Source: a bacterium (GTDB taxonomy: Bacteria; Zhuqueibacterota; Zhuqueibacteria; Residuimicrobiales; Krinioviventaceae). From it: 64,000 bases of DNA. Each line of letters starts with the position of its first letter. Position 1 is the first letter of the stretch. Below the pieces are notes generated by a model. That model did no database searches, was not told the DNA's origin, and saw only the letters and a program-made list of their open reading frames with translations. The stretch covers positions 4,064,001 through 4,128,000 of the forward strand of contig OY843751.1 in the NCBI GenBank assembly GCA_963693055.1. Direction: 5' to 3'. The position numbers and the translations under genes were made by a program. Positions 11,398-55,225 of this stretch are shown piece by piece.

Positions 11398-14300
11398 GTG
11401 AATACAATAAAATACGTATGCCTGTACATCTTTACATTTATTTCAATAACACTATCTCAAGACATTCAAATTCAATGGGTCAAAAATTTTGATTATGCTT
11501 CTAGCATTGATTTTGCACATGATGGAGGATTTATTTTTCTGGCACGTGATGAAATATACAAGATTGATGATCAAGGCACGGTTAAAGATGTTTGGCCGCT
11601 GGATTCAGAACACGATAACCGACATTTTAGTAATCTCAAAAAGTGTAATGAAGGGTATATAATAATAGGTACTGATGTAATTGAAAGCGGATACCGAGAA
11701 CACGTATTGCTGAAAAAACTTGACAACCAGGGCCGGCTGGTATGGGAAAAATCAGGTTACTCTGGTGGTGAATGTAGTGGTAGACTAGTCAGACAAACAC
11801 GTGACAATGGCTACATTCTTTATTACACTTATTGGAATCCGGCTGATCCACCGGCAAGCGGCCCCGATGACGCTCGGATAATGAAAACGGACCCAAATGG
11901 AGAAGAAGAATGGGATTATGAAATTGGCTCTTTTGAAGGCGGTATCAGAGCATTTCATCAAACCACAGATGATGGTTATATAGTAGCCTATAATGTGTAT
12001 GGAGATTATAATGGCTTGTATGGTAGATTACTCCGGTTAACCGCAGATGGCCGGGAAATATGGAAGAAAAAATATAAAGAGTATTTACAAGACGCTTTAC
12101 CAATAGATGATGGTGGTTTCATTATATGCGGTAACAATTATTCAAAGGATAATCCTGTACGTAACACAGCTTATCTTAGAAAAGTAGATGAAAATGGAGA
12201 TGAAATTTGGAAAAAGACTTTTCATAGTGATATGTCTTATGCCTGGTTTTACAACATAACAAAATTGGAAGACAATAGTTATCTATTATATGGAAATATT
12301 TATGATACATATTCGCAAACAAAAGGCTGGCTGATTAAAACAGATAGTTTAGGTAATAAAATCTGGGAAAAAACATTTACAGAACTTGATAATATAAATC
12401 AAGTTTTAAAAATCTCCAACAATGAATTTCTTTTATTGGGTAAAAAGGATGATTATAAAACGTTAATAAAACTACAAGAAAATACCCAGCAAGATCCCAC
12501 AAGTTTTGCATTAATTGATCCTGTATTTTATAAATTGGGTGTTGGTAAACAACTTGTTCTCGACTGGACCAGCATTGCCAAAGCCTCATCATACCTCGTT
12601 GAATTGGATGATAACATTGACATGTCAAGCCCCCTTATCTCAAAAACGATTACAAACAGTTCAAGTTGTAACATCGATAGTTTGTCATATTCAACACAAT
12701 ATTATTGGAGAGTCAGGGCCCAATTCCCGGATGATTCAGGTCAATGGTCCGGAATTAGCACATTTACAACCATGCTCCCTCCCCACATAGAGTTTAATGG
12801 AAAAGAATACAATATGTCATATATTGATGTTGGTGATCGATACTATACAGACAGAGAGTATATTATAACAGAAATGCCAGATCCATTGAATAATTGTTTA
12901 TGGATCAAAACCCCAAACAGTGAAAAGTATATAACAGATGACAATTATATTCAATTTCAGTTAAAAAGGGATGCAACTATCTATATCGCCTACGACAACC
13001 GCGCCAGCGCTGTCCCATATTGGTTATCATCCGATTTTGAACAAACCGAATATACCATTCAGAATTCTGATGAAGAAAGTAATTTCACTATCTGGAAAGG
13101 CCAATTCTCAGCAGGTGATGTAACATTGGGAGCAAATTCAGCAAGCGGTGCAGAAGGTGTACTAACAAATTATATTGTGTTAATAGATATACCCATCCAA
13201 ATGCTCGACCCCAGGCACAACAAAACCGGGATTGGAAATGATTTATACTTTAGCTGGGAACCATTGGGCAATTACGGGTCTCATGATTTACAAATCAACA
13301 ATACACCTAATATGTCGTCGCCCTTGTATAATATTACTAATATTGGGAATTCCAGGTATCTATTTGAAGGATTGGAGTATAATAAAGACTATTACTGGAG
13401 GATTAAAGCGCATAATCGCAACGATAAGAATGCCTGGTCTCAAATACAAAAATTTCATACAATGAATGAACCTCCAATTGAAATAATATCTTATTATGAT
13501 GGGGATAAATATGTATTATCATGGCTTGAAGAAAATGATCAATACTATGTTGATCGAAATGATATAGTCCTTTCCATCCCCGATCCCTTGAAAAATTTGT
13601 TTTGGATTAAAACAGCAAATGATGATGCACAAAAAGCCTCTAATTATCATCTGCACATTCGATTAAAAAATGAAGCAACCATCTATGTTGGTTTTGATTC
13701 AAGGGCTACTTCCCTGCCCAATTGGGTAACAGATAATTTTAGTAATACCGGCTTGACCATAAAAGTTTCGGATGAAGCAAATGAATTAAATATATGGTCC
13801 AGAAATATTGATAAAGGCTATACCCACTTTGGGGGAAACATGGCAGAAGGTGCTGAAAATATCAAAAGCCATTATGTCGTTTTAATAGATACAAACCAGG
13901 TCCCTCCCCTGTCCGCTCATTTTGGTTCAGATGTAACCTCAGGAGTACTCCCGTTAACCGTTAATTTCGCAGACAGTTCTCAGGGTTATATAACGTCATG
14001 GTTATGGGATTTTGGTGATGGATCGACCTCTATAGAGCAGAATCCCTCACATACCTATGAAAACGCAGGCAGCTACACTGTTAGTTTAACAGTAAGTGGA
14101 CTGGGTGGTTCTGATACCATAACAAAAGAAAATTATATTACCGTAAAAAATGTGATAGCAAATTTCAGTGCGGATGTGACTATGGGAAAAGCACCGCTAA
14201 CCGTAAGTTTCACCGACAGCTCACAGGGTGAAATCGACGCATGGTTATGGAAATTTGGAGACGGACTCACAAGCACGTCGCAAAATCCAACGCATGTATA

Positions 14301-14691
14301 CACATCTGGCGACTCGTTCACCGTATCGCTTTTTGTGCGTGGACCAGGTGGATCAAATACAATTGTCAAATCGAATTATATAATAGTGGATCATCCAACA
14401 TCTATTGACGACATGGCCGGGATACCGGAAAAGTTCGATCTGCTTCCCAACTATCCCAATCCATTTAATCCGCAAACCACCATCCGGTATGCGGTACCGA
14501 AAAGGTCAGTTGTAAATATAACGATATATGATATCAATGGAAAATTAGTAAACAATTTATTCTCCGGAATCAAAAATCCGGGGAATTATGCTATCACATG
14601 GAACGCCTCAGGCTTTTCATCCGGCATGTATTTCATCAAAATGGATACGGATAGCTACTCGTCTGTTAGAAAATGTATACTGGTAAAATAA
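11398..14691 (+). CDS. Secreted multidomain surface protein, array copy 1 (SP, 7-blade beta-propeller, FN3, module X1, FN3, module X2, 2 PKD, T9SS-type-A/FlgD-like CTD)
   Basis: GTG start after TTAGGGG RBS; seven W-x-K...DxxG blades; YYWRVRA and YYWRIKA FN3 motifs; WDFGDG..NPSHTY PKD motifs; NYPNPFNPQTTI...KCILVK CTD. Confidence 0.9.
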   Translation: MNTIKYVCLYIFTFISITLSQDIQIQWVKNFDYASSIDFAHDGGFIFLARDEIYKIDDQGTVKDVWPLDSEHDNRHFSNLKKCNEGYIIIGTDVIESGYREHVLLKKLDNQGRLVWEKSGYSGGECSGRLVRQTRDNGYILYYTYWNPADPPASGPDDARIMKTDPNGEEEWDYEIGSFEGGIRAFHQTTDDGYIVAYNVYGDYNGLYGRLLRLTADGREIWKKKYKEYLQDALPIDDGGFIICGNNYSKDNPVRNTAYLRKVDENGDEIWKKTFHSDMSYAWFYNITKLEDNSYLLYGNIYDTYSQTKGWLIKTDSLGNKIWEKTFTELDNINQVLKISNNEFLLLGKKDDYKTLIKLQENTQQDPTSFALIDPVFYKLGVGKQLVLDWTSIAKASSYLVELDDNIDMSSPLISKTITNSSSCNIDSLSYSTQYYWRVRAQFPDDSGQWSGISTFTTMLPPHIEFNGKEYNMSYIDVGDRYYTDREYIITEMPDPLNNCLWIKTPNSEKYITDDNYIQFQLKRDATIYIAYDNRASAVPYWLSSDFEQTEYTIQNSDEESNFTIWKGQFSAGDVTLGANSASGAEGVLTNYIVLIDIPIQMLDPRHNKTGIGNDLYFSWEPLGNYGSHDLQINNTPNMSSPLYNITNIGNSRYLFEGLEYNKDYYWRIKAHNRNDKNAWSQIQKFHTMNEPPIEIISYYDGDKYVLSWLEENDQYYVDRNDIVLSIPDPLKNLFWIKTANDDAQKASNYHLHIRLKNEATIYVGFDSRATSLPNWVTDNFSNTGLTIKVSDEANELNIWSRNIDKGYTHFGGNMAEGAENIKSHYVVLIDTNQVPPLSAHFGSDVTSGVLPLTVNFADSSQGYITSWLWDFGDGSTSIEQNPSHTYENAGSYTVSLTVSGLGGSDTITKENYITVKNVIANFSADVTMGKAPLTVSFTDSSQGEIDAWLWKFGDGLTSTSQNPTHVYTSGDSFTVSLFVRGPGGSNTIVKSNYIIVDHPTSIDDMAGIPEKFDLLPNYPNPFNPQTTIRYAVPKRSVVNITIYDINGKLVNNLFSGIKNPGNYAITWNASGFSSGMYFIKMDTDSYSSVRKCILVK

Positions 14692-14707
14692 ATTTTAGGG
14701 GAAAACC

Positions 14708-17700
14708 GTGAATAAAATAAAAAATGTATGTCTGTTACTTATTTTAAGCTTTTCAGTAGTAATATCTCAAGACCTCCAAATTCAATGGTCAAAAACATAT
14801 GATTATAAATCCGGACATAACATTGATTTTTCACATGATGGAGGATTTTTTTTCACAAATAGTATTGAAGGGATTGTTAAGATTGATAATCAAGGAGCTG
14901 TGCAAGACGTCTGGCGTCCTGATTCTACATATGTATACTCGGTCTATAATAATGCACAAAAGTGTAATGAAGGATATATAATAATAGGTACAATTAATGA
15001 TGACAAAATCAAGGTAATATTAAAAAAACTTGACAATCAAGGGCGGCAGGAATGGAAAAAATATTTTTCCAGAGAAAATTATATTGATTATGAAGGTGCA
15101 GAAATTCACTTTCAAGACGAAGGTAAAATAGTCAAACAAACACGTGACAATGGTTACATTCTATTGAGTGAAGGACTCGAATCTGACAGTTTTTATTTCG
15201 ACTCTTACATTTGGTTAGTTAAAACAGACCCATACGGCAAAAAAGAATGGGATCATGAAATTGGCGTTGATAGCGGCTACATTAAAGCAATACATCAAAC
15301 ATCGGATGATGGTTATTTAGTAGCATATAACGAATATGACGACTATGATCGCGATTCTGGTATATTGCTCCGGTTAACATCAGATGGACAGAGAATCTGG
15401 AAAAAGGAATATGATGAGTTATTAGAATACGTATTGCCAGCTGATGATGGCGGATTCTTTATTGGCGGTAACATTTATTCAAGGTATAACCTTACACAAA
15501 ATACATCTCAGTTAAAAAAGGTAGACAAAAATGGAGATGAAATTTGGAAAAAGACGTTTCACTATGAATCTGCAGGTTCCCGTTTAAACAGCATGATAAA
15601 ATTGGATGACAATAGCTATTTATCAAGTGGTTACATTTATGATTCAGGTTCGCAATCAACAAAAGGCTGGTTAATCAAAACGGATAGTTTGGGTAATGAA
15701 ATATGGGAAAAAACATTTGTAGAGATTGATAATATAATACAAGCTTTACAAATCTCCCAAAATGAATTTATCTTACTCGGCAACAAGGGAGGCTATACAA
15801 CCATAATTAAAGCAAAAGAATACATACAGCAAGGTTCTACTATACTTGACTTATTAGAACCTGTAAACTATAAAATGGGGGTTGGTACCCAACTGTGTCT
15901 GGATTGGACCATCTATGAAAATGCTTCATCATACCTCATTGAAATTGATGATAACATTGACATGTCTAGCCCCTTCATTTCAAAAACTGTCTCAAGCAAT
16001 TCAAACTGCATCATTAATGGATTATCCTATTCAACACAATATTTCTGGAGGGTCAGGGCCAATTTACCTGATGGATCAGACCATTGGTCTAATACCAGTT
16101 CATTCAAAACAATGCGCGCACCCTCAATCGAGTTCAACCTACCGGAAGGCTATTGCAGTTCATATGTAGATGTTGGCGATCAATATTACACAGACAGAGA
16201 ATATACCATAACAGAACTGCCGGAGCCATTGAAAAATTGTCTGTGGATCAAAACCCAAAACAGCGATAAATATTTAACCGACGATGATTACATTCAATTT
16301 CAGTTAACCAGAGATGCAACCATCTATATCGCCTATGACAATCGTGCAAGCGCTGTCCCCCATTGGTTGTTATCCGGTTTTGAACAAACTGGATATACGA
16401 TTCAGAGTTCTGATGATGAAAGTACCTTTAATATCTGGAAGGGCCGGTTCCCGGCAGGTGATGTAACATTAGGGGCAAATTCGGCAACTGGAGCAGAGGG
16501 TGTGCAAACAAATTATATTGTTCTCATAGATATACCTATCCAAATGCTTGATCCCAGGGACAACAAATCAGGGATTGGAAATGATGTAATCTTTAGCTGG
16601 GAAACACCGGGCAATTTTGGATCATATGATTTACAAATCAGTGAAAATCAGAATATGTCGTCACCATTACAAAATATTAACAACATATTGAGTCCGAGGT
16701 ATCTATTAAAAGGATTGGATTATAATAAAGACTATTACTGGAGGGTCAAAGCGCACAATCGTAATGATGAGAACGCTTGGCACGAGACACAAAGAATCCA
16801 TACGATGGATTACCCGAAAGTTAGTATTTATTATAATAGAGATAACCAAGTATTAGCCTGGATTGAAGAAAATGATCAATACTATATTGACTGTAATGAT
16901 GTGGTCATTTCCATCCCGGATCAGTTGAAAAATTTATTATGGATTAAAACAGCAAATAATAAAGCAACATTAGAATATGATAGTTTTGAAATTCACCTGG
17001 GGAATAAAGCAACTATCTATGTTGGATTTGATTCAAGGGCCACATCCCTGCCCAACTGGGTAACTGACAATTATAGAAATACCGGCTTGACCATAAAAGT
17101 TTCGGATGAAGCAAATGAATTAAATATATGGTCCAGAAATGTTGATAAAGGCTCTGTCTACATGAGTACAATCATGGCAGAAGGCGCTGAAAACATCAAA
17201 AGCAATTATGTCGTTTTAATAGATACCAACCAGGTACAACCTCTTTTAGCTGATTTTGGTTCAGATGTAACAACGGGAGTGCTACCGTTAACCGTTAATT
17301 TGGCAGACAGTTCTAAGGGTTTTATAACATCATGGTTTTGGGATTTTGGTGATGGAACGACCTCTACAGAAAAAAATCCCTCCCACACCTTTAAAAACTC
17401 GGGAAACTATACGGTGAGTTTGACAATAAACGGTCCGGACAGTTCTGATACTATCATGAAAGAAAATTACATTTCAGTTAAAAATGTGATTGGAAATTTC
17501 AGTGCGGATGTGACTATGGGACAAGCTCCACTCACTGTGAGTTTTACCGACAGCTCGCTGGGCGAAATTGATGCATGGTTATGGAAGTTTGGAGACGGAC
17601 TCACAAGCACAGCGCAAAATCCATCGCACGTTTACACCTCTGGCGACTCATTCACCGTATCGCTGTTCGTGCGCGGACCCGGTGGATCAAATACAATTGT

Positions 17701-18025
17701 CAAAACTAATTTCATTATTGTAGACCACCCCACATCCATAAATGACATGGCCGGGATACCGGATAAATTCGATTTACTACCCAATTACCCCAATCCATTT
17801 AATCCGCAAACTACGATACGTTTTGCGGTACCGAAGAAATCATTTGTTAAAATTACAATATTTGATATAAACGGAAAACTGGTCCAGAACTTATTTTCCG
17901 GCACCAAAAATCCGGGGCATTATGCCATCACATGGAACGCCTCAGGCTTTTCATCCGGCATGTATTTCATCAAAATGGATACGGATAGCTACTCGTCTGT
18001 TAGAAAATGTATACTGGTAAAATAA
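14708..18025 (+). CDS. Secreted multidomain surface protein, array copy 2
   Basis: Same architecture as copy 1; 16-nt spacer containing TTAGGGGAAAACC-GTG. Confidence 0.9.
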   Translation: MNKIKNVCLLLILSFSVVISQDLQIQWSKTYDYKSGHNIDFSHDGGFFFTNSIEGIVKIDNQGAVQDVWRPDSTYVYSVYNNAQKCNEGYIIIGTINDDKIKVILKKLDNQGRQEWKKYFSRENYIDYEGAEIHFQDEGKIVKQTRDNGYILLSEGLESDSFYFDSYIWLVKTDPYGKKEWDHEIGVDSGYIKAIHQTSDDGYLVAYNEYDDYDRDSGILLRLTSDGQRIWKKEYDELLEYVLPADDGGFFIGGNIYSRYNLTQNTSQLKKVDKNGDEIWKKTFHYESAGSRLNSMIKLDDNSYLSSGYIYDSGSQSTKGWLIKTDSLGNEIWEKTFVEIDNIIQALQISQNEFILLGNKGGYTTIIKAKEYIQQGSTILDLLEPVNYKMGVGTQLCLDWTIYENASSYLIEIDDNIDMSSPFISKTVSSNSNCIINGLSYSTQYFWRVRANLPDGSDHWSNTSSFKTMRAPSIEFNLPEGYCSSYVDVGDQYYTDREYTITELPEPLKNCLWIKTQNSDKYLTDDDYIQFQLTRDATIYIAYDNRASAVPHWLLSGFEQTGYTIQSSDDESTFNIWKGRFPAGDVTLGANSATGAEGVQTNYIVLIDIPIQMLDPRDNKSGIGNDVIFSWETPGNFGSYDLQISENQNMSSPLQNINNILSPRYLLKGLDYNKDYYWRVKAHNRNDENAWHETQRIHTMDYPKVSIYYNRDNQVLAWIEENDQYYIDCNDVVISIPDQLKNLLWIKTANNKATLEYDSFEIHLGNKATIYVGFDSRATSLPNWVTDNYRNTGLTIKVSDEANELNIWSRNVDKGSVYMSTIMAEGAENIKSNYVVLIDTNQVQPLLADFGSDVTTGVLPLTVNLADSSKGFITSWFWDFGDGTTSTEKNPSHTFKNSGNYTVSLTINGPDSSDTIMKENYISVKNVIGNFSADVTMGQAPLTVSFTDSSLGEIDAWLWKFGDGLTSTAQNPSHVYTSGDSFTVSLFVRGPGGSNTIVKTNFIIVDHPTSINDMAGIPDKFDLLPNYPNPFNPQTTIRFAVPKKSFVKITIFDINGKLVQNLFSGTKNPGHYAITWNASGFSSGMYFIKMDTDSYSSVRKCILVK

Positions 18026-18041
18026 ATTTTAGGGGAAAACC

Positions 18042-21000
18042 GTGAATAAAATAAAAAATGTATGTCTGTTACTTATTTTAAGCTTTTCAGTAGTAATATC
18101 TCAAGACCTTCAAATTCAATGGGCAAAGACATATGATTATGAATCTGGTATTTACATGAACATTGATTTTGCACATGATGGAGGATTTGTTTTCACAACA
18201 TATGACGATAAAACTATTGTCAAGATTGACAAGCATGGTATTGTTCAGGAAGACTGGCCGCTGGATATTGGAAAAATTCCCATCTATGGTTATCTACAAA
18301 AGTGCAATGAAGGATATATATTAATAAGCACTGTTCGTCATGAAGGCAAATTAAAGGCATTACTGAAAAAACTTGACAATCAGGGTCGTCTGGAATGGGA
18401 AAAATACTATTACGAAGATGATCATGGTGAAGTTAGTGTCTGGAACTCGGGTGAATTTGTTAAACAAACACAAGACGAGGGTTACATTCTTTTTTGTACT
18501 TCAAACAATAATGCTGATCCATCCGGTTCCCGCTTGAGCTTTTGGTTTATTAAAACAGACCCCTATGGAGAAATCGAGTGGGAAAGTGGGGCCTGTGGTG
18601 ATTTTTATGGATCAAATACATCTATAGATGTACATCAATTATCTGACGGTGGTTATATTTTCGCATATAACAACGATGATGGCGGCTTGACCCGGCTATC
18701 ACCAGACGGTCAGGATATCTGGGAAAAAAGATATGACCAATATATAAAATACGTTTTACCAGCAGATAATGGTGGTTTCTTTATTGGCGGTAATTATTAT
18801 TTATCAGATGCTAATACACAAGGTACCGTCTATTTAAAAAAGGTTGACGAAAATGGAGATGAAATTTGGATTAAGACTTTTCAAAATGACTCGAAAGCTT
18901 TATATACAAAAAACATGATACTGTTGGATGACAATAGCTGTCTGTTGTGTGGAAGCGGTGCTGAACCAGGTTCGTATACATCAAATGGTTGGATAATCAA
19001 AGCTGACAGTTTAGGTAATAAAATCTGGGAAAAAAATTTCCCAGAAATTAATAACATAAATCAAGTTTTAAAAGTATCCGAAAATGAATTTCTAGTATTC
19101 GGTGAAAAAGATGATCGGGTAACCATAATAAAACTACAAAAAAACGACCCCAACGATCCCACAAAACTTGAATTATTGGATCCGGTAAACCATAAATTAG
19201 GGGTAGGCAATCAACTCTGTCTGGACTGGACCAGCGTGGCCAATGCTTCATCATATCTCGTTGAATTAGATGATGACAGTGACATGTCAAGCCCCCTCAT
19301 TTCAAAAACAGTTTCAAACAGTTCAAGTTGTATTATAAGCGACCTTGCATACTCCACGCAGTATTATTGGAGAGTCAGGGCCCAATTCCCGGAAGGCCCG
19401 GGTAACTGGTATGGTATTAACACATTTACAACCATGCTCCCTCCACACATGGAATTTAGTGAACAGGAAGGTTACTACTTGTCATATGTAGATGTTGGTG
19501 ATCAATATTATACAGACAGAGATTACACAATAACAGAACTGCCAGATCAATTTAAAAATTGTATATGGATCAAAACCCTGGATAGTGAAAAATATTTAAC
19601 AGATGACAATTACATTCAATTTCAGTTAAAAAGAGACGCAACCGTCTATATTGCCTATGACAACCGGGCAAGCTCTGTTCCCCAGTGGTTGTCATCCAGG
19701 TTTGAACAAACCGAATACACCATACAGAATTCTGATGAAGAAAGTAATTTCACTGTCTGGAAAGGCCAATTCACAGCAGGTGATGTCACATTAGGAGCCA
19801 ATTCAGCAAGCGGCGCAGAGGGTGTACTCGCCAATTATGTTGCATTCATAGATATCCCACTTCAAATGCTTGATCCCAGGGACAACAAATCCGGAGTGGG
19901 AAAAGATTTAAGCTTTAGCTGGGAAGCGATAGGAAATTTCGAAAATTACGATCTGCAAATCAGCGAGAATCAGGACATGTCAAGTCCCTTATCTTATATT
20001 ACCAACATAAAGTATACCCGCTATATTTTAAGAGATCTGGATTATAATAAAGACTATTACTGGAGGATCAAAGCTCACAATTGCAACGATGAAAATTCAT
20101 GGTACCAGACACAAAAGTTCCATACTATGGATGAACCTATAGTTAAATTGAGTGAATATGAATATTATATATTATCCTGGCTCGAAGAAAATGATCAATA
20201 TTATATTAACCAAAATGATGTAATTCTTTCCATTCCAGACCAGTTAAAAGGTTTACTGTGGGTCAAAACTGCAAATAATGATTTAGCCTTGGAATATGAT
20301 TCATTTTATATTCACCCGGAGAAAGAAGTAACTATTTATGTCGGTTTTGATTCAAGGGCCACCTCACTTCCAAACTGGGTAACAGACGACTTTAAAAACA
20401 CGGGGTTAACCATAACTGTTTCTGATTCAGCAAATGAATTAAATATATGGACCAGAAATTTAAACAAAAGCATATTTTCCTTTGGCGAATGCTGGGCAGA
20501 AGGCGCTGAAAACATTAAAAGCCAGTATGTCGTTTTAATAGACACCAACCAGGTACAACCTCTTTCAGCAAATTTCGGTTCAGATGTAACATCAGGAGTA
20601 TTCCCGTTGACTGTTAACTTTTCAGACAGTTCTCAAGGCCTTATCACATCATGGTTATGGGATTTTGGTGATGGCGCAACCTCCACTGAAAAGAATCCCT
20701 CCCACACCTATGAAAACTCGGGAAACTATTCGGTGAGGTTAACAGTACACACACCCGACAGCTCTGACACGATTATAAAAGAAAATTACATTACAGTTAA
20801 AAATGTGATAGCAAATTTCAGTGCAGATGTGACTATGGGAAAAGCACCGCTAACCGTGAGTTTTACAGACAATTCACTGGGTGAAATTGACGCATGGTTA
20901 TGGAAATTTGGAGACGGACTCACAAGCACAGAGCAAAATCCAACGCACGTGTACACATCCGGCGACTCGTTCACAGTGTCGCTTTTTGTGCGCGGCCCCA

Positions 21001-21344: not shown

Positions 21345-21360
21345 ATATTAGGGGAAAACC

Positions 21361-24300
21361 GTGAACACAATAAAAAATATATGCTTGTTCCTTATCTTGA
21401 GCTTTACAGCAGTATTATCTCAAGACTTGCAAATTCAATGGTCAAAAACATATGATTATAAAGAGGGTAATTGCATTGACTTTACTCATGATGGAGGATT
21501 TATTTTTACACTCTTTTATAATTATTATAAGGGGGAAATTATAAAAATAGATGACCAAGGCGCTGTACAAGATGTTTGGCTCTCTGATCCTGCTTTTGAA
21601 GACCAGGAGTATTACCATGTACAAAAATGCAATGAAGGCTATATAGCAACCGGCTTTATAGAGCTGGATGATTCAAATAAAATGATGGCAATATTAAAAA
21701 AACTTGACAATCAGGGCCGACAGGAATGGGAAAAATTCTTTTATCATGATGATGTTTCGGAAAATGACTATACCGGTGGCTATAATGTTGACGACTATGG
21801 CATATTGGTCAAACAAACACGTGATAAAGGTTACATTCTCTTATGTGAAGAAATAGAAGATGATGGCAAATGGGGTATCGACAAAGACTTTTGGTTAATA
21901 AAAACAGACCCATATGGGGAAAAAGAGTGGGATTATAGGATTTGGGCTGATTACAGTTTTGTCGATGCTGCCCGAGCAATACATCAAACATCTGATGATG
22001 GTTATATTATCGCTTATAACGACATTGATGACGAATTTGGCCATCTGCTCCGGTTTACTGCAGACGGCCGGAAAATCTGGGAAAAAGAATATAAAGAGTA
22101 TATAAGATACGCTTTACCAACAGAGGATGGTGGTAACATTATATGCGGTAGCAGTTTTTTAAAAAAAGTAGACCAACATGGAGATGAAATATGGGAAAAG
22201 ACTATACAATATGAATCATTAAAACCTTATGTAAATAACATGACAAAATTGGATGACAATAGTTATTTATTTTGTGGGGTGGATTGGGATTCAGACACGC
22301 AATCACGAAAAGGCTGCATAATCAAAACGGACAACCTGGGTAATAAAATTTGGGGAAAAACATTTACTGAATTTGATGATTTAAAACAAGCTTTACAAAT
22401 CTCTAACAATGAATTTATTTTATTCGGTGATAAAAAAGAATATGTAACGATAGTAAAAATCAAGGTAAACGCCCAGCAAGATCCCACAACATTTGAATTA
22501 TTGGATCCTGTAAATAATAAATTGGGAGTTGGAACTCAACTTGATCTGGATTGGACCAGCGTCTCTAATGTTTCCTCATACTTTCTTGAATTAGATGATG
22601 AAAGAGACATGTCAAGCCCCCTCATTTCAAAAATAATAACAAACAGTTCAAATTATATCATTAATGATTTGTCTGATTCAACACAATATTACTGGAAAGT
22701 CAGGGCCCAATTCCCGGATGGATCAGGTTATTGGACAGAGACCGGCACCTTTAAAACAATGCCTCCTCCACATATCGAATTTAATGGACCTGATGGTTAC
22801 AATCTATCCTATGTGGATGTTGGCGATCAATATTATACAGACAGAGATTATACCATAACCGGGCTGCCGAATCAATTTAACAATTGTCTATGGATCAAAA
22901 CCCAAAACAGCGATAAATTTAATACATATGACGATTTTATTCAATTTTATTTAGAAACTGATGCAACCGTCTATATCGCCTATGACAATCGGGCAAGTGC
23001 TGTTCCCCATTGGTTGTCATCCAGTTTTGAGCAAACTGAATACACTATTGAGAATTCTGATGAAGAAAGTAATTTTAATGTCTGGAAAGGCCGGTTCCCG
23101 GCAGGTGATGTAACATTAGGAGCCAATTCGGCAAGCGGAGCAGAGGGTGTGCAAACAAATTATGTTGTACTTTTAGATATGCCGCTGCAAGGGCTCGATC
23201 CCAGGGACAACAAAACAGGTGTTGGGAATGATGTGATCTTGAGCTGGGAGACACTGGGCAATTTCGGGGCATATGATCTACAACTCGGTGAAGATCAGGA
23301 CATGTCAAATCCCTTATATAATAATACCAACATAAAGCGTACCAGGAATAGTATAAGAGACTTGGATTATAATAAAGACTATTACTGGAGAGTCAAAGCT
23401 CACAATCGTGACGATGAGGATGCCTGGTCCCAAACGCAAAAGTTTCATACAATGGATGAACCGCCAGTTGAAATAATTATAAGCTGGTATAATCCTGTAT
23501 TTGCCTGGCTTGAAGAAAATGATAAATACTATATTGACCGGAATGATGTGGTTCTTTCCATCCCGGATCAATTAAAGAATTTACTCTGGATAAAAACAGA
23601 TAATGATGATGCTCAAAACACTTTTAATTATTATCGTCTGCGTCTTCGATTTGAAAAAGAAGCAACCCTCTATGTGGGTTTTGATTCAAGGGCCACATCC
23701 CTACCAAACTGGGTAACAGACTATTTTAGTAATACCGGCTTGACCATAACTGTTTCTGATGCAGCAGATGAATTAAATATTTGGGCCAGAAATGTTGATG
23801 CAGGCGAAATCAAAATGGGGGCAAACATGGCTGAAGGCGCTGAAAACATCAAGAGTCATTACGTCGTCTTAATAGACACAAACCAGACACCACTCCTATC
23901 AGCTGATTTCGGTTCAGATGTAACATCGGGTTTGCTGCCTTTGACTGTAAATTTCTCAGACAGTTCACAAGGTATTGTTAATATAACAAACTGGGCATGG
24001 GATTTTGGTGACGGTGCAACCTCTTCGGAACAGAATCCCTCCCACACCTATGAAAATACGGGAAATTATTCGGTGAGTTTAACAGTACACGGACCGGACA
24101 GCTCTGATACAATCATAAAAGAAAATTATATTACCGTAAAAAATGTAATAGCAAATTTCGGTGCAAATGTGACCATGGGACAAGCTCCACTAACCGTAAG
24201 TTTCACCGACAGCTCACAGGGAGAAATTGACGCATGGCTGTGGAAATTTGGAGACGGACTCACAAGTACAGCGCAAAATCCTACACACGTGTACACATAT

Positions 24301-24684
24301 GGCGACTCATTCACCGTATCGCTTTTTGTACGTAATCCAGGTGGATCAAATACAATGGTCAAAACGAATTATATTATTGTAGACCATCCCACTTCCATAG
24401 ACGACATGGCCGGCATACCGGAAAAATTCGATTTACTGCCCAATTATCCCAATCCATTTAATCCGCAAACCACAATCCGCTTTGCGGTACCGAAAAGATC
24501 ATTTGTAAAATTAACTATATATGATATCAACGGAAAACAGGTAAGCAATTTGTTCTCCGGAATCAAAAACCCGGGGAATTATGCTATAACCTGGAATGCC
24601 TCAAGCCTTCCATCCGGTATGTACTTTATCAAAATGGATACGGAAACCTACGCGTCAGTTAGAAAATGTATTTTAGTAAAATAA
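21361..24684 (+). CDS. Secreted multidomain surface protein, array copy 4
   Basis: Same architecture; 16-nt spacer. Confidence 0.9.
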   Translation: MNTIKNICLFLILSFTAVLSQDLQIQWSKTYDYKEGNCIDFTHDGGFIFTLFYNYYKGEIIKIDDQGAVQDVWLSDPAFEDQEYYHVQKCNEGYIATGFIELDDSNKMMAILKKLDNQGRQEWEKFFYHDDVSENDYTGGYNVDDYGILVKQTRDKGYILLCEEIEDDGKWGIDKDFWLIKTDPYGEKEWDYRIWADYSFVDAARAIHQTSDDGYIIAYNDIDDEFGHLLRFTADGRKIWEKEYKEYIRYALPTEDGGNIICGSSFLKKVDQHGDEIWEKTIQYESLKPYVNNMTKLDDNSYLFCGVDWDSDTQSRKGCIIKTDNLGNKIWGKTFTEFDDLKQALQISNNEFILFGDKKEYVTIVKIKVNAQQDPTTFELLDPVNNKLGVGTQLDLDWTSVSNVSSYFLELDDERDMSSPLISKIITNSSNYIINDLSDSTQYYWKVRAQFPDGSGYWTETGTFKTMPPPHIEFNGPDGYNLSYVDVGDQYYTDRDYTITGLPNQFNNCLWIKTQNSDKFNTYDDFIQFYLETDATVYIAYDNRASAVPHWLSSSFEQTEYTIENSDEESNFNVWKGRFPAGDVTLGANSASGAEGVQTNYVVLLDMPLQGLDPRDNKTGVGNDVILSWETLGNFGAYDLQLGEDQDMSNPLYNNTNIKRTRNSIRDLDYNKDYYWRVKAHNRDDEDAWSQTQKFHTMDEPPVEIIISWYNPVFAWLEENDKYYIDRNDVVLSIPDQLKNLLWIKTDNDDAQNTFNYYRLRLRFEKEATLYVGFDSRATSLPNWVTDYFSNTGLTITVSDAADELNIWARNVDAGEIKMGANMAEGAENIKSHYVVLIDTNQTPLLSADFGSDVTSGLLPLTVNFSDSSQGIVNITNWAWDFGDGATSSEQNPSHTYENTGNYSVSLTVHGPDSSDTIIKENYITVKNVIANFGANVTMGQAPLTVSFTDSSQGEIDAWLWKFGDGLTSTAQNPTHVYTYGDSFTVSLFVRNPGGSNTMVKTNYIIVDHPTSIDDMAGIPEKFDLLPNYPNPFNPQTTIRFAVPKRSFVKLTIYDINGKQVSNLFSGIKNPGNYAITWNASSLPSGMYFIKMDTETYASVRKCILVK

Positions 24685-24700
24685 ATTTTAGGGGAAAACT

Positions 24701-27700
24701 GTGAATTCAATAAAAAACATATTCTTGGTTATCTTGTCAATTATTTCAATAACACTTTCTCAAGACCTTCAAATTCAATGGTCAAAAACATATGATTATA
24801 AATCCGGACATAACATTGATTTTGCGCATGATGGAGGATTTATTTTCACAGCAACTGGTAAAATATTCAAGATTGATGGACAAGGCACTATTCAAGAAGG
24901 CTGGCCACTGGATCCAGTACCTGATAATCAAGCCATAAGGTATCTCCAAAAGTGTAATGAAGGTTATATAATAACTGGTAGTGCTAAGCTGGAGGACGGA
25001 TATGATGACAGGGTATTGCTGAGAAAGCTTGACACCCAGGGTCGGCAAGTATGGGAAAAAATTCCTTACAGTGATTATGCTGATTCTCGTGGTGAATTTG
25101 TCAAACAAACACATGACAATGGTTACATTCTTTATTACACTATGGAAGATCTATCTGTTCCACCAGGTAACGACAACACAGACTATTGGATAAAGAAAAC
25201 TGACCCAAATGGAGAAGAAGAATGGGATTATAGAATTAATAATGAAATCGGAGGCCAAAATGCAATACATCAAACATCAGATGGTGGTTATTTACTAGCC
25301 TATAGCTACTATGAAAATTGGGTTAGCTTACCTGGTAAATTGGTCCGGTTATCACCAGCCGGCCGGGAAATCTGGGAAAAAAGGTATGATCAGTATATAA
25401 ATTTCGCGTTACCAACAGATGATGGTGGGTATTTTATTTGGGGCCGCATTTATTCAAAGGATAATCCTATATATGATACAGTTTGTTTAAAAAAGGTAAA
25501 CCAAATTGGAGATGAAATTTGGGAAAAGACCTTTCAAGGTGATATGGAATATGCCTGGTTAAGTAACATGATAAAATTGGACGATAATGGCTACCTGATA
25601 AGCGGTAACAAGTATGAAAAATATCAAGAAAAATATGGCTGGTTAATCAAAACGGACAATTTTGGTAATAAAATATGGGAAAAAACTTTTACCGAAATTG
25701 ATGTCATAAAACAAATTTTAATCATCTCACCAAACGAATATATCTTGTTTGGTAACAAGGGCGATTATGTAACGATTCTAAAAATCAAAGAAAACTATCC
25801 GGAAGACCCCACTAAACTTGAATTATTAGATCCTGTAAACTATAAATTGGGGGTTGGAACCCAAGTTTGCCTGGATTGGACCAGCATCGTCAATGCTTCA
25901 TCATACCTCCTTGAAATAGATGATGATAGTGACATGTCAAGTCCCCTTGTCTCCAAAACTATTTCAAATGAATCAAACTGTATTGTAGATGGATTATCCG
26001 ATTCAACACAATATTACTGGAGAGTCAGGGCCCAATTAACAGAAGGTCCTGGAAACTGGTCTAATATTAGAACATTTACAACAATGCTTCCTCCACACAT
26101 AGAGTTTATCGAACCAGAAGGGTACAACATGTCCTATGTGGATACTGGCGATCAATATTACACGGACAGAGAGTATACAATAACAGGACTGCCGGAAACA
26201 TTGAAAAATTGTCTGTGGATGAAAACCTCAAATAGAGAAAAATATTTAACAGATGAAAATTACGTTCAATTTCAGTTAAAAAGAGACGCAACCATCTTTA
26301 TTGCCTATGATAACCGGGCCAGCGCCGTTCCCTATTGGTTATCATCCGGGTTTGAACAAACCGAATACACCATTCAGAATTCTGATGTAGAAAGTGATTT
26401 TAATGTCTGGAAGGGGCAATTCTCAGCAGGGGATGTAACTTTGGGGGCCAATCTGGCAACCGGAGCCGAAGGTGTGCAAACAAACTATGCTGTATTAATA
26501 GATATACCGTTACAAATGCTTGATCCCAGAGATAATAAAACAGGTATTGGTAACAATGTTATCTTTAGCTGGGAAGCAATAGGTAATTTTGAGAATTATG
26601 ATTTACAAATCAGTGATAATCAGGACATGTCAAATCCCTTTTATAATATTACCGACATAGAAGACACCAGTCACAAAATAAGAAATTTAGACTATAATAA
26701 AGACTATTACTGGAGAATCAAAGCACACAATCGTGACGATGAGGATGCCTGGTACCGGACGCAAAAATTCCATACAATGGATGATCCCCATATTCGTATA
26801 TGGGGTAGTCGATGGAGTTATGTATTATCCTGGCTTGAAGAAAATGAACAATACTATGTTGATCGTAATCATGTAATTCTTTCTATCCCTGATCCATTAA
26901 AAAATTTACTATGGATTAAAACAAATAATGATGATGCAAATCTGGATACAGAAATAAATTTTGATTATGGTCGTCCTCTGGCAATTAAATTAGAAAATAA
27001 AGCAACCATTTATGTGGGTTTTGATTCAAGGGCTACATCCCTGCCAAACTGGGTAACAGACTATTATAAAAATACCGGATTGACCATATCAGTTTCTGAC
27101 AAAGCAAAAGAATTAAATATATGGACCAGAAAGGTTTACAAAGGTGAAACTGTCCTGGGCTCGAATATGGCAAAAGGCGCTGAAAACATAAAAAGTCAGT
27201 ATATCGTTTTACTGGATTTATACCCCCTGTTGGCTAAATTCGATTCAGATGTAACAAAAGGAGTGCTACCTTTGACCGTAAATTTCTCAGACAGTTCTCA
27301 GGGTAATATTAAAAACAGGGCATGGGATTTTGGTGATGGAACAACATCAACATTGCGGAATCCTTCCCACACCTATGAAAACGCGGGCAGCTATACAGTC
27401 AGCTTGACAGTGAGCGGTCCAGACACTTCTGCTACAATAACAAAAAAAGATTATATAGCAGTATACAAAACTGCAATTATTGCTAATTTCGGGTCAGATA
27501 TATCATCAGGGGTGCTGCCATTAACTGTCAGTTTTTCTGACAGCTCTCAGGGTGATATAACCACCTGGGCATGGGATTTTGGTGATGGGTCAACCTCTAC
27601 AGAAAAAAATCCCTCCCACACCTATGAAAACGCAGGCAGCTACACTGTTAGTTTAACAGTAAGTGGACTGGGTGGTTCTGATACCATAACAAAAGAAAAT

Positions 27701-28258
27701 TATATTACCGTAAAAAATGTGATAGCAAATTTCAGTGCGGATGTGACTATGGGAAAAGCACCGCTAACCGTAAGTTTCACCGACAGCTCACAGGGTGAAA
27801 TCGACGCATGGTTATGGAAATTTGGAGACGGACTTGCAAGTACAGCGCAAAATCCTACTCACGTGTACACATCTGGTGACTCGTTCACCGTATCGCTTTT
27901 TGTGCGCGGTCCCGGTGGATCACATACAATGGTCAAATCGAATTATATAATAGTTGACCATCAAACATCCATTGACGACATGGCCTGTATACCGGACAAA
28001 TTCGATTTACTGCCCAATTACCCCAATCCATTCAATCCGCAAACCACAATCCGGTTTGCAGTACCAAAAAAATCATTTGTAAATATTACAATATTTGATA
28101 TAAACGGAAAGCTGGTCCAGAACTTATTTTCCGGCACCAAAAATCCGGGACATTATGCCATCACATGGAACGCCGCAGGCTTTTCATCCGGCATGTATTT
28201 CATCAAAATGGATACGGATACCTACTCGTCTGTCAGAAAATGTATATTGGTTAAATAA
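24701..28258 (+). CDS. Secreted multidomain surface protein, array copy 5 (three PKD domains)
   Basis: Same architecture plus one extra WDFGDG..NPSHTY PKD repeat (1185 aa versus about 1100 aa). Confidence 0.9.
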   Translation: MNSIKNIFLVILSIISITLSQDLQIQWSKTYDYKSGHNIDFAHDGGFIFTATGKIFKIDGQGTIQEGWPLDPVPDNQAIRYLQKCNEGYIITGSAKLEDGYDDRVLLRKLDTQGRQVWEKIPYSDYADSRGEFVKQTHDNGYILYYTMEDLSVPPGNDNTDYWIKKTDPNGEEEWDYRINNEIGGQNAIHQTSDGGYLLAYSYYENWVSLPGKLVRLSPAGREIWEKRYDQYINFALPTDDGGYFIWGRIYSKDNPIYDTVCLKKVNQIGDEIWEKTFQGDMEYAWLSNMIKLDDNGYLISGNKYEKYQEKYGWLIKTDNFGNKIWEKTFTEIDVIKQILIISPNEYILFGNKGDYVTILKIKENYPEDPTKLELLDPVNYKLGVGTQVCLDWTSIVNASSYLLEIDDDSDMSSPLVSKTISNESNCIVDGLSDSTQYYWRVRAQLTEGPGNWSNIRTFTTMLPPHIEFIEPEGYNMSYVDTGDQYYTDREYTITGLPETLKNCLWMKTSNREKYLTDENYVQFQLKRDATIFIAYDNRASAVPYWLSSGFEQTEYTIQNSDVESDFNVWKGQFSAGDVTLGANLATGAEGVQTNYAVLIDIPLQMLDPRDNKTGIGNNVIFSWEAIGNFENYDLQISDNQDMSNPFYNITDIEDTSHKIRNLDYNKDYYWRIKAHNRDDEDAWYRTQKFHTMDDPHIRIWGSRWSYVLSWLEENEQYYVDRNHVILSIPDPLKNLLWIKTNNDDANLDTEINFDYGRPLAIKLENKATIYVGFDSRATSLPNWVTDYYKNTGLTISVSDKAKELNIWTRKVYKGETVLGSNMAKGAENIKSQYIVLLDLYPLLAKFDSDVTKGVLPLTVNFSDSSQGNIKNRAWDFGDGTTSTLRNPSHTYENAGSYTVSLTVSGPDTSATITKKDYIAVYKTAIIANFGSDISSGVLPLTVSFSDSSQGDITTWAWDFGDGSTSTEKNPSHTYENAGSYTVSLTVSGLGGSDTITKENYITVKNVIANFSADVTMGKAPLTVSFTDSSQGEIDAWLWKFGDGLASTAQNPTHVYTSGDSFTVSLFVRGPGGSHTMVKSNYIIVDHQTSIDDMACIPDKFDLLPNYPNPFNPQTTIRFAVPKKSFVNITIFDINGKLVQNLFSGTKNPGHYAITWNAAGFSSGMYFIKMDTDTYSSVRKCILVK

Positions 28259-28272
28259 TATTAGGGGAAACC

Positions 28273-31200
28273 GTGAATACAATAAAAACCATATGTCTGT
28301 TTATCTTGTCAATTATTTCAATAACACTTTCTCAAGACATTCAAATTCAATGGTCAAAAACATATGATTATGATTATGATATAACTTTTGATAATAGCAT
28401 TGATTTTGCGCATGATGGAGGATATATTTTCACAACAGGTCGTAAAATGTTCAAGATTGATGGACAAGGCACTGTTCAGGAAGATTGGCCGCTGGATCCA
28501 TTGCCTGATAACCAATCCATAAATTATCTCCAAAAGTGCAATAAAGGCTATATAACAACAGGTTATATTTGTCTTGAAAGTGAAAATAAAATTAAGGCAT
28601 TTCTGAGAAAAATTGACAACCAGGGCCGGCAGGAATGGGAAAAACTCTTTTTCAATAGTGATACTGATTATGCTGATATTAGTGATTATGGTATGTTGGT
28701 CAAACAAACTCATGACAATGGTTACATTCTCATTTTTGATGATTTCCAGATGGATTGGACCACATATGAACCTGACAATGACTATTGGATAATTAAAACA
28801 GACCAGTATGGGGAAATACAGTGGGATTATTGGATTTGGGGTGATTACAATTCCGGCGAACCTTCAGCAATATATCAAACATCCGACAATGGTTATATTA
28901 TCGCCTATAACTACGATTCCGGTAATCTGCTCCGGTTAACTGCAGATGGCCATAAAATGTGGGAAAAAAAATATGAAAATAATATAGGACACGTTTTACC
29001 AACAGAGAATGGGGGGTTCTTAATTTGCGGCTACAACTATATAAAAATGGTAGATAAATATGGAGATGAAATTTGGATTAATTCTTTTCAAAATGATCAT
29101 GCGTACTCTTTAACTTATATTAAAAGACCGGACAATAACAGCTATTTATTAAGCGGAAGCATTATTGATTCCTCAAATAGGTCAAAGGGCTGGTTGATCA
29201 AAACGGACAACTTTGGCAATAAAATTTGGGGAAAAACATTAACAGACATTACTAACATATATCAAATTTTAAAAATCTCCCAAAACGAATATATTTTATT
29301 CGGTTACAAGGGAGGTTATACAACTATAATTAAAATCAAAGAAGACTCTCAGCAAACTCCCACAACATTTGAATTATTAGACCCTGTGGACAACAAGTTG
29401 GGGGTTGGAACTCAACTTTGTCTGGACTGGACCAGTGTTGCCAATGTGTCCTCCTACCTCCTTGAAGTTGATGATGACAATGACATGTCAAGTCCCCTTG
29501 TCTCCAAAACTATTTCAAATGAATCAAACTGTATTGTAGATGGATTATCCGATTCAACATACTATTACTGGAGAGTCAAAGCCCTATTTTCGGATAATTC
29601 CGGCAGTTGGTCTGAAATCAGTACATTTAAAACAATGCAACCTCCCCACATGAAATTTAATGGACCTGATGGTTACAACCTGTCATATGTAGATGTTGGT
29701 GATCAATATTATACGGACAGAGATTACACCATAACCAGTCTGCCTGATCCATTTAAAAATTGTCTATGGATTAAAACCCAAAACAGCGATAAATTTAATA
29801 CTTATGACGATTTTATTCATTTTTATTTGGAAACTGATGCAATCGTCTATGTTGCTTATGATAACCGTGCAAGCTCTGTTCCCCATTGGTTGTTATCTCA
29901 TTTTGAGCGTACCCAATACACCATAGAAAATACTGATGAATACTGTAATTTCACTATCTGGAAAGGCCAATTCGCAGCAGGTGAAGTAACATTAGGGGCC
30001 AATATAGCAAATGGAGCAGAGGGTGTGCTAACAAATTATGTTGTATTCATTGATATTCCACTACAGTTACTTGATCCCAGGGACAATAAAACCGGTGTTG
30101 GAATTGATTTAAGCTTAAGCTGGGAAGCACTAAGCAATTTAGAAAATTATGATCTGCAAATCAACGATAACCAGGACATGTCATCGCCCTTGTATAATAT
30201 TAACGATATATGGAAGCCTTGGTATTGTTTAAAGGACCTGGACTATAATAAAGACTATTATTGGAGGATCAAAGCGCACAATCGTAATGATGAGGATGCC
30301 TGGTCCCAAACACAAAAATTTCATACAATGAATGAACCTCCAATTCATATTACATATTGGATTGATTATTATTATTTGGTAGAGTCATTGTCCTGGTTAG
30401 AAGAAAATGATCAATACTATTTTGACCGAAATTATATAATTCATTCTATTCCCGATCCCTTGAAAAATCTACTTTGGATCAAAACAGCAAATGATAATGC
30501 TCAAAAAGACTCTGATATTTATCTGAACTTTGGATCACAAAGTGAAATAACACTTTATGTTGGTTTTGATTCCAGGGCCACATCCCTGCCAAACTGGGTA
30601 ACGGACGATTTTAGCAACACAGGTTTGACCATAAAAGTTTCTGATGCAGCAAAAGAATTAAATATATGGTCAAGAACTGTTAAAAAGGGTTGGTTCTATC
30701 TGGAGTCAAATATAGGAGAAGGCGCTGAAAACATTAAAAGTCATTATGTCGTTTTAATAGACACCAACCAGGTACAACCTCTCTCTGCTCATTTTGGTTC
30801 AGATGTAACCTCGGGAGTACTCCCGTTAACCGTTAATTTCGCAGACAGTTCTCAAGGCCTTATCACATCATGGTTATGGGATTTTGGTGATGGCGCAACC
30901 TCCACTGAAAAGAATCCCTCCCACACCTATGAAAACGCAGGCAGCTACACTGTTAGTTTAACAGTAAGTGGACTGGGTGGTTCTGATACCATAACAAAAG
31001 AAAATTACATTACAGTCAAAAATGTGATAGCAAATTTTGGTGCAGATGTGACCATGGGACAAGCACCGCTTACTGTGAGTTTTACTGACAGTTCACTTGG
31101 AGACATTGACGCATGGTTGTGGAAATTTGGAGACGGACTCACAAGTACGTCTCAAAATCCAACGCACGTGTACACCTCTGGCGACTCGTTCACCGTATCG

Positions 31201-31570: not shown

Positions 31571-31597
31571 CCCCGGGCATCTTGCCCGGGGATTTTT
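31571..31597 (+). terminator. Rho-independent terminator closing the six-gene array
   Basis: Perfect 9-bp stem ccccgggca-tct-tgcccgggg followed by attttt, 7 nt after the stop of copy 6. Confidence 0.85.
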
Positions 31598-54500: not shown

Positions 54501-55225
54501 AACAAATCCTTATATTTTAAATCGATAACATCAAGATTCAACTCTACCGTATAAAGTGCGTTTGAAAATGTAATTTTTTGATCAGATTCAAATGAATCCA
54601 AATGAAAAGCTTGTCCATTTTGAAAATGAACTGAACGGTTAGGATTAACTTTAAAATCAAATATATTATCAGTCGTTGCATATAAATAGAATTCATTTCT
54701 ATACCAGCGCAATACTCCAAACCGTGTAGGAATCAATAGACTGCTGTCAGGTGATTGTACAATGTTATAATCCTGCCAAAAAAAGTCAGAAAATAAAAAG
54801 AGTGGAGTTAATACATTATTATCCACCATATATAATCCGGTTGTAGATCCCGCAATTAAGCTACCCTCCGATGTTTTTAGTAATGTTACAATTTTATCTG
54901 CCGGTTCTCCCATGCAAGAATCATATTTTACCCAATTCAACCCATTATAACTCACAAGCCCCTGGTTCACACCAAACCACAGGGTACTGTCAGGAGTTTG
55001 TTCCATACAATTTACACCCAAACCATCCAGACCATTAAATTTTTGCCAAAATGAAATATTATTTACAGGATCATCTTCAAGAGGTTGAAAAAACAAAACA
55101 GGCAAGGCTATGCCATAATAGAAAAACAAAACCAGCACTACCCCGAATAAAACTACGCCCCGACGCCACTTGAAATCCATCTGGTTCAATGCCTTATAAT
55201 TCAGATCTTTCATAAAAGATATCAT
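51554..55225 (-). CDS. Sensor histidine kinase: beta-propeller (Reg_prop) repeats, Y_Y_Y domain, TM, PAS-like, HisKA_2 and HATPase
   Basis: LWFG/IW repeats; [23 protein letters not shown]; [13 protein letters not shown]; [24 protein letters not shown]; [11 protein letters not shown]; DEGIG; SLGLRLV. Confidence 0.92.

Follow-up and report, generated by a model that had tools for sequence, protein, structure and literature searches.

The stretch of DNA analysed here (the window) comprises 64,000 nucleotides (nt) of a bacterial contig, OY843751.1 (positions 4,064,001 to 4,128,000; assembly GCA_963693055.1). Between its positions 11398 and 31563 lie six co-oriented paralogous open reading frames (ORFs) of 1096-1185 amino acids (aa), every one of which begins with GTG. 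Overall DNA identity among the six copies is 74.8-78.0% (~76%), and the copies are mosaics of one another, most probably as a result of recombination between paralogs. The genes of the array and the elements between and behind them are as follows.

11398..14691, + strand: copy 1 (c1), 1097 aa, described from its ORF, Pfam matches (PKD, fn3, Por_Secre_tail), structure models and fold matches
14692..14707, + strand: spacer ATTTTAGGGGAAAACC, 16 nt, followed by a GTG start
14708..18025, + strand: copy 2 (c2), 1105 aa
18042..21344, + strand: copy 3 (c3), 1100 aa
21361..24684, + strand: copy 4 (c4), 1107 aa, two PKD domains
24701..28258, + strand: copy 5 (c5), 1185 aa, three PKD domains
27221..27484, + strand: the extra (third) PKD domain of c5, colinear with the extra PKD domain of copy e4 in a same-genus genome (81% nt identity)
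28273..31563, + strand: copy 6 (c6), 1096 aa, with a PKD region that is a patchwork
18026-18041, 21345-21360, 24685-24700 and 28259-28272, + strand: near-identical spacers of 14-16 nt
31571..31591, + strand: terminator-like hairpin 3' of c6, nine pairs (eight G-C) and then a T run

The hairpin is the sole strong terminator-like hairpin on the + strand. Together with the short, near-identical spacers, its position after c6 makes it likely, judging from sequence, that the array is one operon whose six genes are co-transcribed.

All six products share one architecture: a signal peptide, a 7-bladed beta-propeller, two modules of an fn3 domain and a beta-sandwich, two or three PKD domains, and a C-terminal domain (CTD) of the type IX secretion system (T9SS). 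In c1, the signal peptide is followed by the propeller (residues 21-372), an fn3 domain, a beta-sandwich termed X (458-600), a second fn3 domain, a second X (688-836), two PKD domains and the CTD.

An earlier, sequence-only reading of the window had pointed to four exact DNA tracts (215, 95, 95 and 79 bp) shared between non-adjacent copies and had taken them as signs of ongoing gene conversion or segment shuffling. All four contain no mismatch and cannot be extended by a single base on either side. They are listed first below, followed by other shared tracts.

14053..14267, + strand: 215-bp exact tract of c1, equal to 27620-27834 in c5, within PKD1-PKD2
30842..30936, + strand: 95-bp exact tract of c6, equal to 20623-20717 in c3
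30913..31007, + strand: 95-bp exact tract of c6, equal to 27608-27702 in c5
25930..26008, + strand: 79-bp exact tract of c5, equal to 29481-29559 in c6, in the first fn3 domain
13942..14060, + strand: 119-bp exact tract of c1, equal to a tract of the distal paralog d2
14593..14775, + strand: 183-bp exact junction tract, equal to 17927-18109
28068..28219, + strand: CTD region of c5 nearly identical to that of c6, exact over 83 and 68 bp (31373-31455 and 31457-31524)
28008-28065, + strand: further 58-bp exact tract of c5 and c6, CTD region

The edges of these tracts reveal where partners change. The two 95-bp tracts of c6 overlap by 24 nt, and the crossover window placed at 30913-30936 follows from them arithmetically; here c6 switches from copy-3-like to copy-5-like sequence. 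The first 83 bp of the 215-bp tract shared by c1 and c5 are also identical in c6 (30925-31007). In c1, the d2-type and c5-type tracts overlap by 8 nt, forming a second recombination joint at which the partner switches. Neighbouring tracts within one gene thus differ in partner: d2 and then c5 in c1, and d2, c3 and c5 in c6. The 183-bp tract spans gene boundaries: it runs from c1 (3' end) across the spacer into c2 (5' end), and its duplicate links c2 (3' end) to c3 (5' end) in the same way.

Outside the tracts, similarity falls away at once, as the earlier reading had proposed for flanking synonymous sites. The flanks carry 19-39 nt differences per 150 nt, and around the PKD and CTD tracts the changed codons are mostly synonymous. 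For example, the two copies of the 215-bp tract differ at 31 nt in the 150 nt to the left (synonymous changes in 16 codons, non-synonymous in 10) and at 19 nt in the 150 nt to the right (14 synonymous, 5 non-synonymous). Across all paralog pairs, median identity inside the columns of this tract is 83%. The tracts are pair-specific, scattered and pairwise among many copies, and none is aimed at one site. Nucleotide-level constraint on an embedded element was considered as their cause and ruled out, as the tracts are specific to pairs rather than common to all copies. The peptide motifs singled out earlier are likewise restricted: among 17 family members (8 in this genome and 9 in the relative), FNGPDGYNLSY and NSDKFNTYDDFIxFYLETDA are confined to c4 and c6, and YDYKSGHNIDF to c2 and c5.

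The family extends beyond the window. Two further full-length tandem paralogs, d1 (1096 aa) and d2 (1101 aa), lie 475 kb from the array (G000:C1:4602682-4609293), where the upstream region is homologous and the same spacer and GTG start are found. These two share a 155-bp exact tract in the CTD with each other and exact tracts with the six-gene array. Counting the array and the distal pair together, 22 exact tracts of at least 50 bp were found among the eight copies, all of which are full-length ORFs with a start codon, a signal-peptide-like N-terminus and a CTD. Because two more paralogs exist 475 kb away, the donor pool is wider than the window.

Several statistical tests point to mosaicism. 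A run-length test covered 1467 polymorphic sites in 3171 ungapped columns of the six copies, with 2000 permutations. Six of the 15 pairs show runs of 29-64 concordant sites, as against a permutation mean of ~10, and none of the 2000 permutations reached such lengths globally. A synonymous version was restricted to codons that specify one and the same amino acid in all eight copies, with 295 polymorphic sites. Here, runs of 33 sites (c2-d1) and 27 sites (c1-c5) were each matched by 0 of 2000 permutations, followed by c5-c6 (21 sites, P 0.0175) and d1-d2 (20 sites, P 0.03); the other 24 pairs in this test had no global significance. The pairwise homoplasy index (PHI) was 0.4896 versus 0.5110 +/- 0.0020, a value as low in 0 of 1000 permutations (z = -10.5).

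Segment-wise trees, proposed earlier as a check on the six genes, proved incongruent and well supported. Twelve segments yielded mutually exclusive clades at 93-99% ultrafast bootstrap, with conflicts among (c1,c5), (c2,c4), (c5,c6), (c4,c6) and (c4,c5). In approximately unbiased (AU) tests, 85 of 132 off-diagonal cells (segment against foreign topology) fell below 0.05, two of the topologies being coincident. A triplet maximum-descent search over all parent pairs, similar to 3SEQ, returned 23 segments at a permutation P<=0.0005. Its parent assignments are uninterpretable where both parents are equally distant paralogs; painting based on orthologs was used instead.

Such orthologs come from a same-genus genome (G001), which carries 7+2 copies (array genes e1-e7 and a pair, f) against 6+2 here. 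The DNA flanking the array is 91-93% identical between the two genomes. Clear orthologs are c3/e5, c4/e6 and d1/f1, and partly c1/e1, with windows that are 92-100% identical. For c3 and e5, for instance, orthology (92-100% identity) persists for ~2.5 kb from the 5' end, until the PKD region is reached, and the last ~0.7 kb has lost it. Copy c4 has two PKD domains versus three in its ortholog e6 (1190 aa), and one patch of c4 is nearer to c6 (87-89%).

Other copies are chimeric with respect to the relative. Copy c5 is orthologous to e4 from domain Xa to the PKD region but not in its 5' ~40% (the propeller and fn3a), and d2 matches e3, a main-array gene in the relative, in its first ~600 nt only. 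Copies c2 and c6 have no ortholog there, and a patch of c2 near 16150-16500 is 94% identical both to d1 and to f1, the ortholog of d1. The earlier suggestion that segments are reassorted combinatorially holds insofar as c5, d2 and c2 are large chimeras relative to these genes; an adaptive programme would go beyond this. Gene order also differs between the genomes, in that e4, the ortholog of c5, precedes the orthologs of c3 and c4. A sequencing run with another organism label (X4) contains contigs that match at 95-99%, one of which joins window positions 28154-28341 to 21430-22560. In this contig, a 3' end and spacer of c5 type lead into a gene start of c4 type. Such an order is unlike that of this genome and would fit a relative whose genes are arranged differently.

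The loss of orthology is itself patterned. In every copy it affects both ends, over ~60 nt at the 5' end and ~0.7 kb, from PKD1 to the CTD, at the 3' end. The pairs c3/e5, c4/e6 and d1/f1 are joined at 100% support in all four 5' segment trees, while three 3' segments pair within genomes: (c5,c6) at 97, (d1,d2) at 99 and (c2,d2) at 97 here, and (e1,e5) at 99-100 and (e4,e6) at 97 in the relative. Synonymous divergence (dS) is 0.04-0.12 in clean ortholog segments versus 0.4-1.9 in the signal peptide, PKD1, PKD2 and CTD; the median dS of paralogs is 0.47-1.03 across domains. Within-genome pairing, combined with lost orthology at the ends, indicates that many of the end-region exchanges postdate the species split in both lineages, as far as sequence comparison can date them.

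Individual events can be placed more loosely. If 3-8% divergence between the species is assumed, zero differences in 215 bp would make the c1-c5 event younger than ~1/5 to 1/2 of the time since the split. The patch of c2 near 16150-16500 would date to about the split or earlier, because it is 94% identical to both d1 and f1.

In summary, the view of the copies as recombination mosaics, first advanced from sequence alone, is borne out by the run tests on all and on synonymous sites, by PHI, by the segment trees and AU tests, and by the same-genus comparison. It is very probable that general (RecA-type) homologous recombination between paralogs produced these mosaics. Short non-reciprocal gene conversions would have left the exact tracts, and unequal crossovers would account for the chimeras and for altered copy number, gene order and number of PKD domains. 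The conserved ends may be hot because they still offer identity long enough for strand exchange; that the most conserved parts are the most exchanged is expected if exchange needs stretches of identity. Exchange would in turn keep the ends alike, while divergent propeller 'heads' would be re-paired with other 'tails' and moved between positions and loci. In a co-transcribed operon, the outcome would be a changing repertoire rather than the switching of one expressed gene. RecA dependence, a continuing process and selection for the re-pairing of heads and tails are what we infer from this pattern; going by the zero differences in 215 bp, conversion would be 'ongoing'. The earlier remark that the window holds no dedicated recombinase agrees with a scan of 32 of its 35 ORFs of at least 150 aa, in which no recombinase, transposase or reverse transcriptase family was found (the three unscanned ORFs overlap larger genes).

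Could birth-and-death alone explain the patches, as remnants of recent whole-gene duplication and loss with no conversion? Copy number (6+2 versus 7+2), gene order and PKD number (two in c4, three in e6) differ between the species, so duplication, deletion or unequal crossover clearly occurred. However, a recent duplicate is expected to be similar over its full length, and here tracts of 79-215 bp with dS 0 are set in paralogs with dS 0.5-1.0. Adjacent tracts of one gene also point to different partners (c1 and c6), and positional orthologs have a dS of 0.04-0.12 in the body and 0.4-1.9 at the ends. We regard turnover of whole genes as a very improbable sole cause.

An equally improbable alternative is import, in which transformation or another form of horizontal transfer brought in foreign alleles and the within-genome identities are secondary. 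The absence of a G001 ortholog for c2 and c6 fits this idea, as do parts that match copies at other positions or loci in the relative (the 5' end of c2 with e7, and the 5' 600 nt of d2 with e3). Yet each exact tract has its identical partner inside this genome, and that partner is the simplest donor. The 3' parts, too, pair within genomes in the two species, and no mobile-element genes flank the array.

False identity could also have been created during assembly or polishing, by reads mis-mapped between paralogs or by assembler chimeras. Errors of this type do arise in repeat families, and the tracts occupy those stretches of the family that resemble one another most; nor does any read or contig extend 31 letters beyond a tract at each end. 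The array is contained, as short-read contigs that were built without the assembly, in three runs of a single sample, which may be the one that was assembled. These contigs match at 100% and break at tract borders, and every base of 30650-31100 is reproduced by them at 100%. One contig of 95 nt (30842-30936) ends exactly where the c6/c3 tract ends, and others in this region cover 30913-30954 and 30925-31007 (83 nt). In run X1 these three pieces have depths of 16.7, 18 and 24.3 against 9.6-10 for unique pieces; although depth is not a copy number, these values of ~1x/2x/3x agree with the copies predicted from the assembly (2, 2 and 3). The c6-specific joints are covered by short contigs at 30825-30871 and, in run X3, at 30907-30942.

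This contig evidence for the tracts as assembled is supportive, not decisive. Other observations also argue against an artefact. No alternative, unconverted version was seen among the contigs, the 'other letters' being places where d1 or d2 matches c2. The relative, which was independently assembled, shows the same mosaic pattern with within-genome pairs of its own, something that an error confined to one assembly does not account for. Older patches bear substitutions (c2 versus d1/f1, 94%), which is not a product of polishing. An artefact is thus even harder to credit than birth-and-death or import. Programmed diversification can practically be dismissed, whether as cassette antigenic variation, in which silent donors feed a single expression site, or as a diversity-generating retroelement. 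There is a superficial likeness to cassettes in the variable head, the conserved ends and the presence of donors at another locus. But all eight copies are full-length, so there are no silent truncated cassettes, and six of them share short spacers and one terminator. The tracts are scattered pairwise and do not converge on any one site, the scanned ORFs contain no family of reverse transcriptases or site-specific recombinases, and conversions concentrate in the conserved parts rather than in the variable head.

Homologous recombination between paralogs remains the favoured account, and several points weigh against it. Only end products are visible, and non-reciprocity, the defining property of conversion, is not demonstrable from them. 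The relative gives no direction for the 215-bp event, as none of its copies exceeds 89% identity in the tract (f1 is the best) and e1 and e4 are unlike it. Some of the large chimeric segments that lack an ortholog (c2 and c6) could have been acquired from other strains through transformation. Segments were picked for the trees and AU tests after the sliding-window table had been viewed, which makes the P values of these analyses post hoc to some degree; PHI and the run tests do not depend on this choice. The parts given here to RecA, to co-transcription, to a place on the cell surface and to glycan binding are predictions. Lastly, no contig bridges a tract under the 31-letter rule, it is the deposited single-contig assembly that supplies the linkage across each tract, and the three runs, as its possible source, are not independent of it.

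A further idea concerns why the ends are shared. The module of PKD-CTD tail, 16-nt spacer and signal peptide might act as a portable recombination handle maintained by selection for diversity, a suggestion that we consider doubtful. If true, propeller heads would change places within the array and with the locus 475 kb away, and an uncultivated bacterium would gain, with no dedicated machinery, a set of co-expressed glycan-binding surface proteins that changes quickly. The arrangement would then not be a passive by-product of sequence similarity.

What the array proteins do can be approached through their predicted structure. Residues 21-372 of c1 were modelled as a 28-strand, 7-bladed beta-propeller with a mean predicted local distance difference test score (pLDDT) of 85.8. 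Its best structural match is the CylK propeller, at a template modelling (TM) score of 0.75, and generic propellers come next. The X domain, of ~145 aa after each fn3 domain, is predicted to be a beta-sandwich (pLDDT 77), and its model resembles accessory domains of a GH2 beta-glucuronidase (6hpd, TM 0.77, E 7.5e-7) and of the GH138 enzyme BP0997. In Pfam searches with E up to 5, neither X domain had a match and the propeller had only a weak one to PQQ_2 (E 0.0031). An NCBIfam search returned the CTD and PKD but no further family, and a Protein Atlas search with the X domain gave unnamed clusters only (best score 0.84) and no lead.

The C-terminus is more readily assigned. Por_Secre_tail is found in all six copies at 48-52 bits (cut-off 27), and TIGR04183 matches at 41.3 bits (cut-off 23). 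The genome encodes the T9SS translocon (SprA/Sov family, 661.7 bits versus a cut-off of 200) and has about 160 T9SS-CTD matches; a search of it for the PorP family gave sub-threshold matches only. The full architecture was found only here, in one same-genus genome and in a KSB1-labelled protein (35% identity), which is the nearest outside homolog, and remoter N-terminal relatives include a protein named 'delta-60 repeat protein' by its source. The array proteins are predicted to be non-catalytic, probably glycan-binding surface proteins attached through the T9SS.

The neighbours of the array encode WbsX-like, GH92 and sulfatase proteins. In the relative, a gene for GH28, a pectin-type glycoside hydrolase, is inserted directly ahead of the first array gene, after the conserved gene upstream (L001:853-2478), and it is absent at the corresponding place in the window. 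Elsewhere in the window, 38961-40799 (- strand) holds a further T9SS cargo gene with Lcl C-terminal domains and Por_Secre_tail, and 49540-51471 has a weak CTD match. A methyl-accepting chemotaxis protein with double Cache, HAMP and MCP signal domains is encoded at 45685-48108 (- strand). In classical Bacteroidota, it is unusual for a T9SS to be accompanied by chemotaxis receptors; the combination fits a different lineage within the wider group. Two adjacent paralogous sensor kinases of ~1200 aa, with Reg_prop propeller repeats, HisKA_2 and HATPase_c, occupy 51554-55225 and 55398-59006 (- strand).

The genome as a whole is rich in repeats and paralog clusters. One tandem array (G000:C1:3495163-3506005) encodes four proteins of ~1010-1040 aa that share the X-domain/PKD/CTD part (40-52% identity to c1) and differ from c1 at the N-terminus. 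A genome-wide scan for exact repeats of at least 100 bp yielded 197 segments, which include many other paralog clusters. Of these segments, 57 are at least 1 kb long; at ~1.2-1.9 kb and in many copies, they look like insertion sequences. Clusters of exact repeats of 100-500 bp between neighbouring genes are many, for example at 342943-345304, 1486324-1490626, 2210878-2217046 and 6252227-6259853, and the scan also found exact repeats of at least 100 bp at 1390219-1394313, the locus of a different gene family. Compared with that family, the six-gene array adds the participation of a second locus and a cross-species comparison by which events can be dated.

As an example of the evolution of a surface-protein family in bacteria, the array is clean and well dated: its genes duplicated long ago (dS ~0.5-1.0), recent exchange keeps the ends alike, and the predicted binding heads diverge and re-pair. 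Arrays of this sort, in environmental lineages that have not been cultivated, cannot be treated as sets of simple orthologs, and single-gene trees are meaningless for such families, which is a warning to annotators and tree-builders. The tracts also flag regions where short-read assemblies will break.

Mosaics of this kind have parallels in other bacteria. In Neisseria pilE/pilS and Borrelia vlsE, one expression site receives sequence from promoterless partial donors and the variable part is replaced. Both systems and the array copy segments between paralogous surface-protein sequences by homologous recombination. In the array, by contrast, every copy is complete and probably co-expressed, judging from the gene layout, and it is the conserved parts that are most often replaced.

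A full-text literature search for gene conversion among type IX secretion paralogs found only one report, on RgpA, Kgp and HagA of Porphyromonas gingivalis, in which adhesin domains are rearranged (Dashper et al. 2017, PMC5266723). As described there, these proteins resemble the array products as T9SS cargo with a CTD and with repeated domains exchanged by homologous recombination or gene conversion. The setting in that account differs, with a host-associated pathogen, dispersed genes and much variation that reflects allelic exchange between strains, whereas here a tight six-gene array in an uncultivated environmental bacterium encodes other domains and no protease domain.

The nearest described case is the lpl cluster of tandem lipoprotein paralogs in Staphylococcus aureus, in which conserved stretches inside the ORFs are sites of homologous recombination, a unit spanning two adjacent genes is conserved, and the ORF ends are phylogenetically incongruent (Tsuru and Kobayashi 2008, PMC2568036). 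Going by that description, both systems consist of co-oriented tandem paralogs with surface-associated products and incongruent phylogenies of ORF ends, and in both, conserved stretches within the ORFs would be where recombination takes place. In lpl, a 3' end, the spacer and the next 5' end can travel together, and the 183-bp tract may be a trace of this in the array. The spacers of the array are all near-identical, but only one junction-spanning tract was seen, so a two-gene unit of the lpl type is no more than a candidate here. The reported lpl recombination region is central and the ends vary, whereas in the array the ends are conserved and exchanged and the N-terminal propeller varies. 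Moreover, lpl genes encode small lipoproteins, while the array encodes unrelated T9SS cargo of ~1100 aa and involves a second locus 475 kb away. The mosaicism of the array is a known kind of process for bacterial surface-protein families, with no new mechanism.

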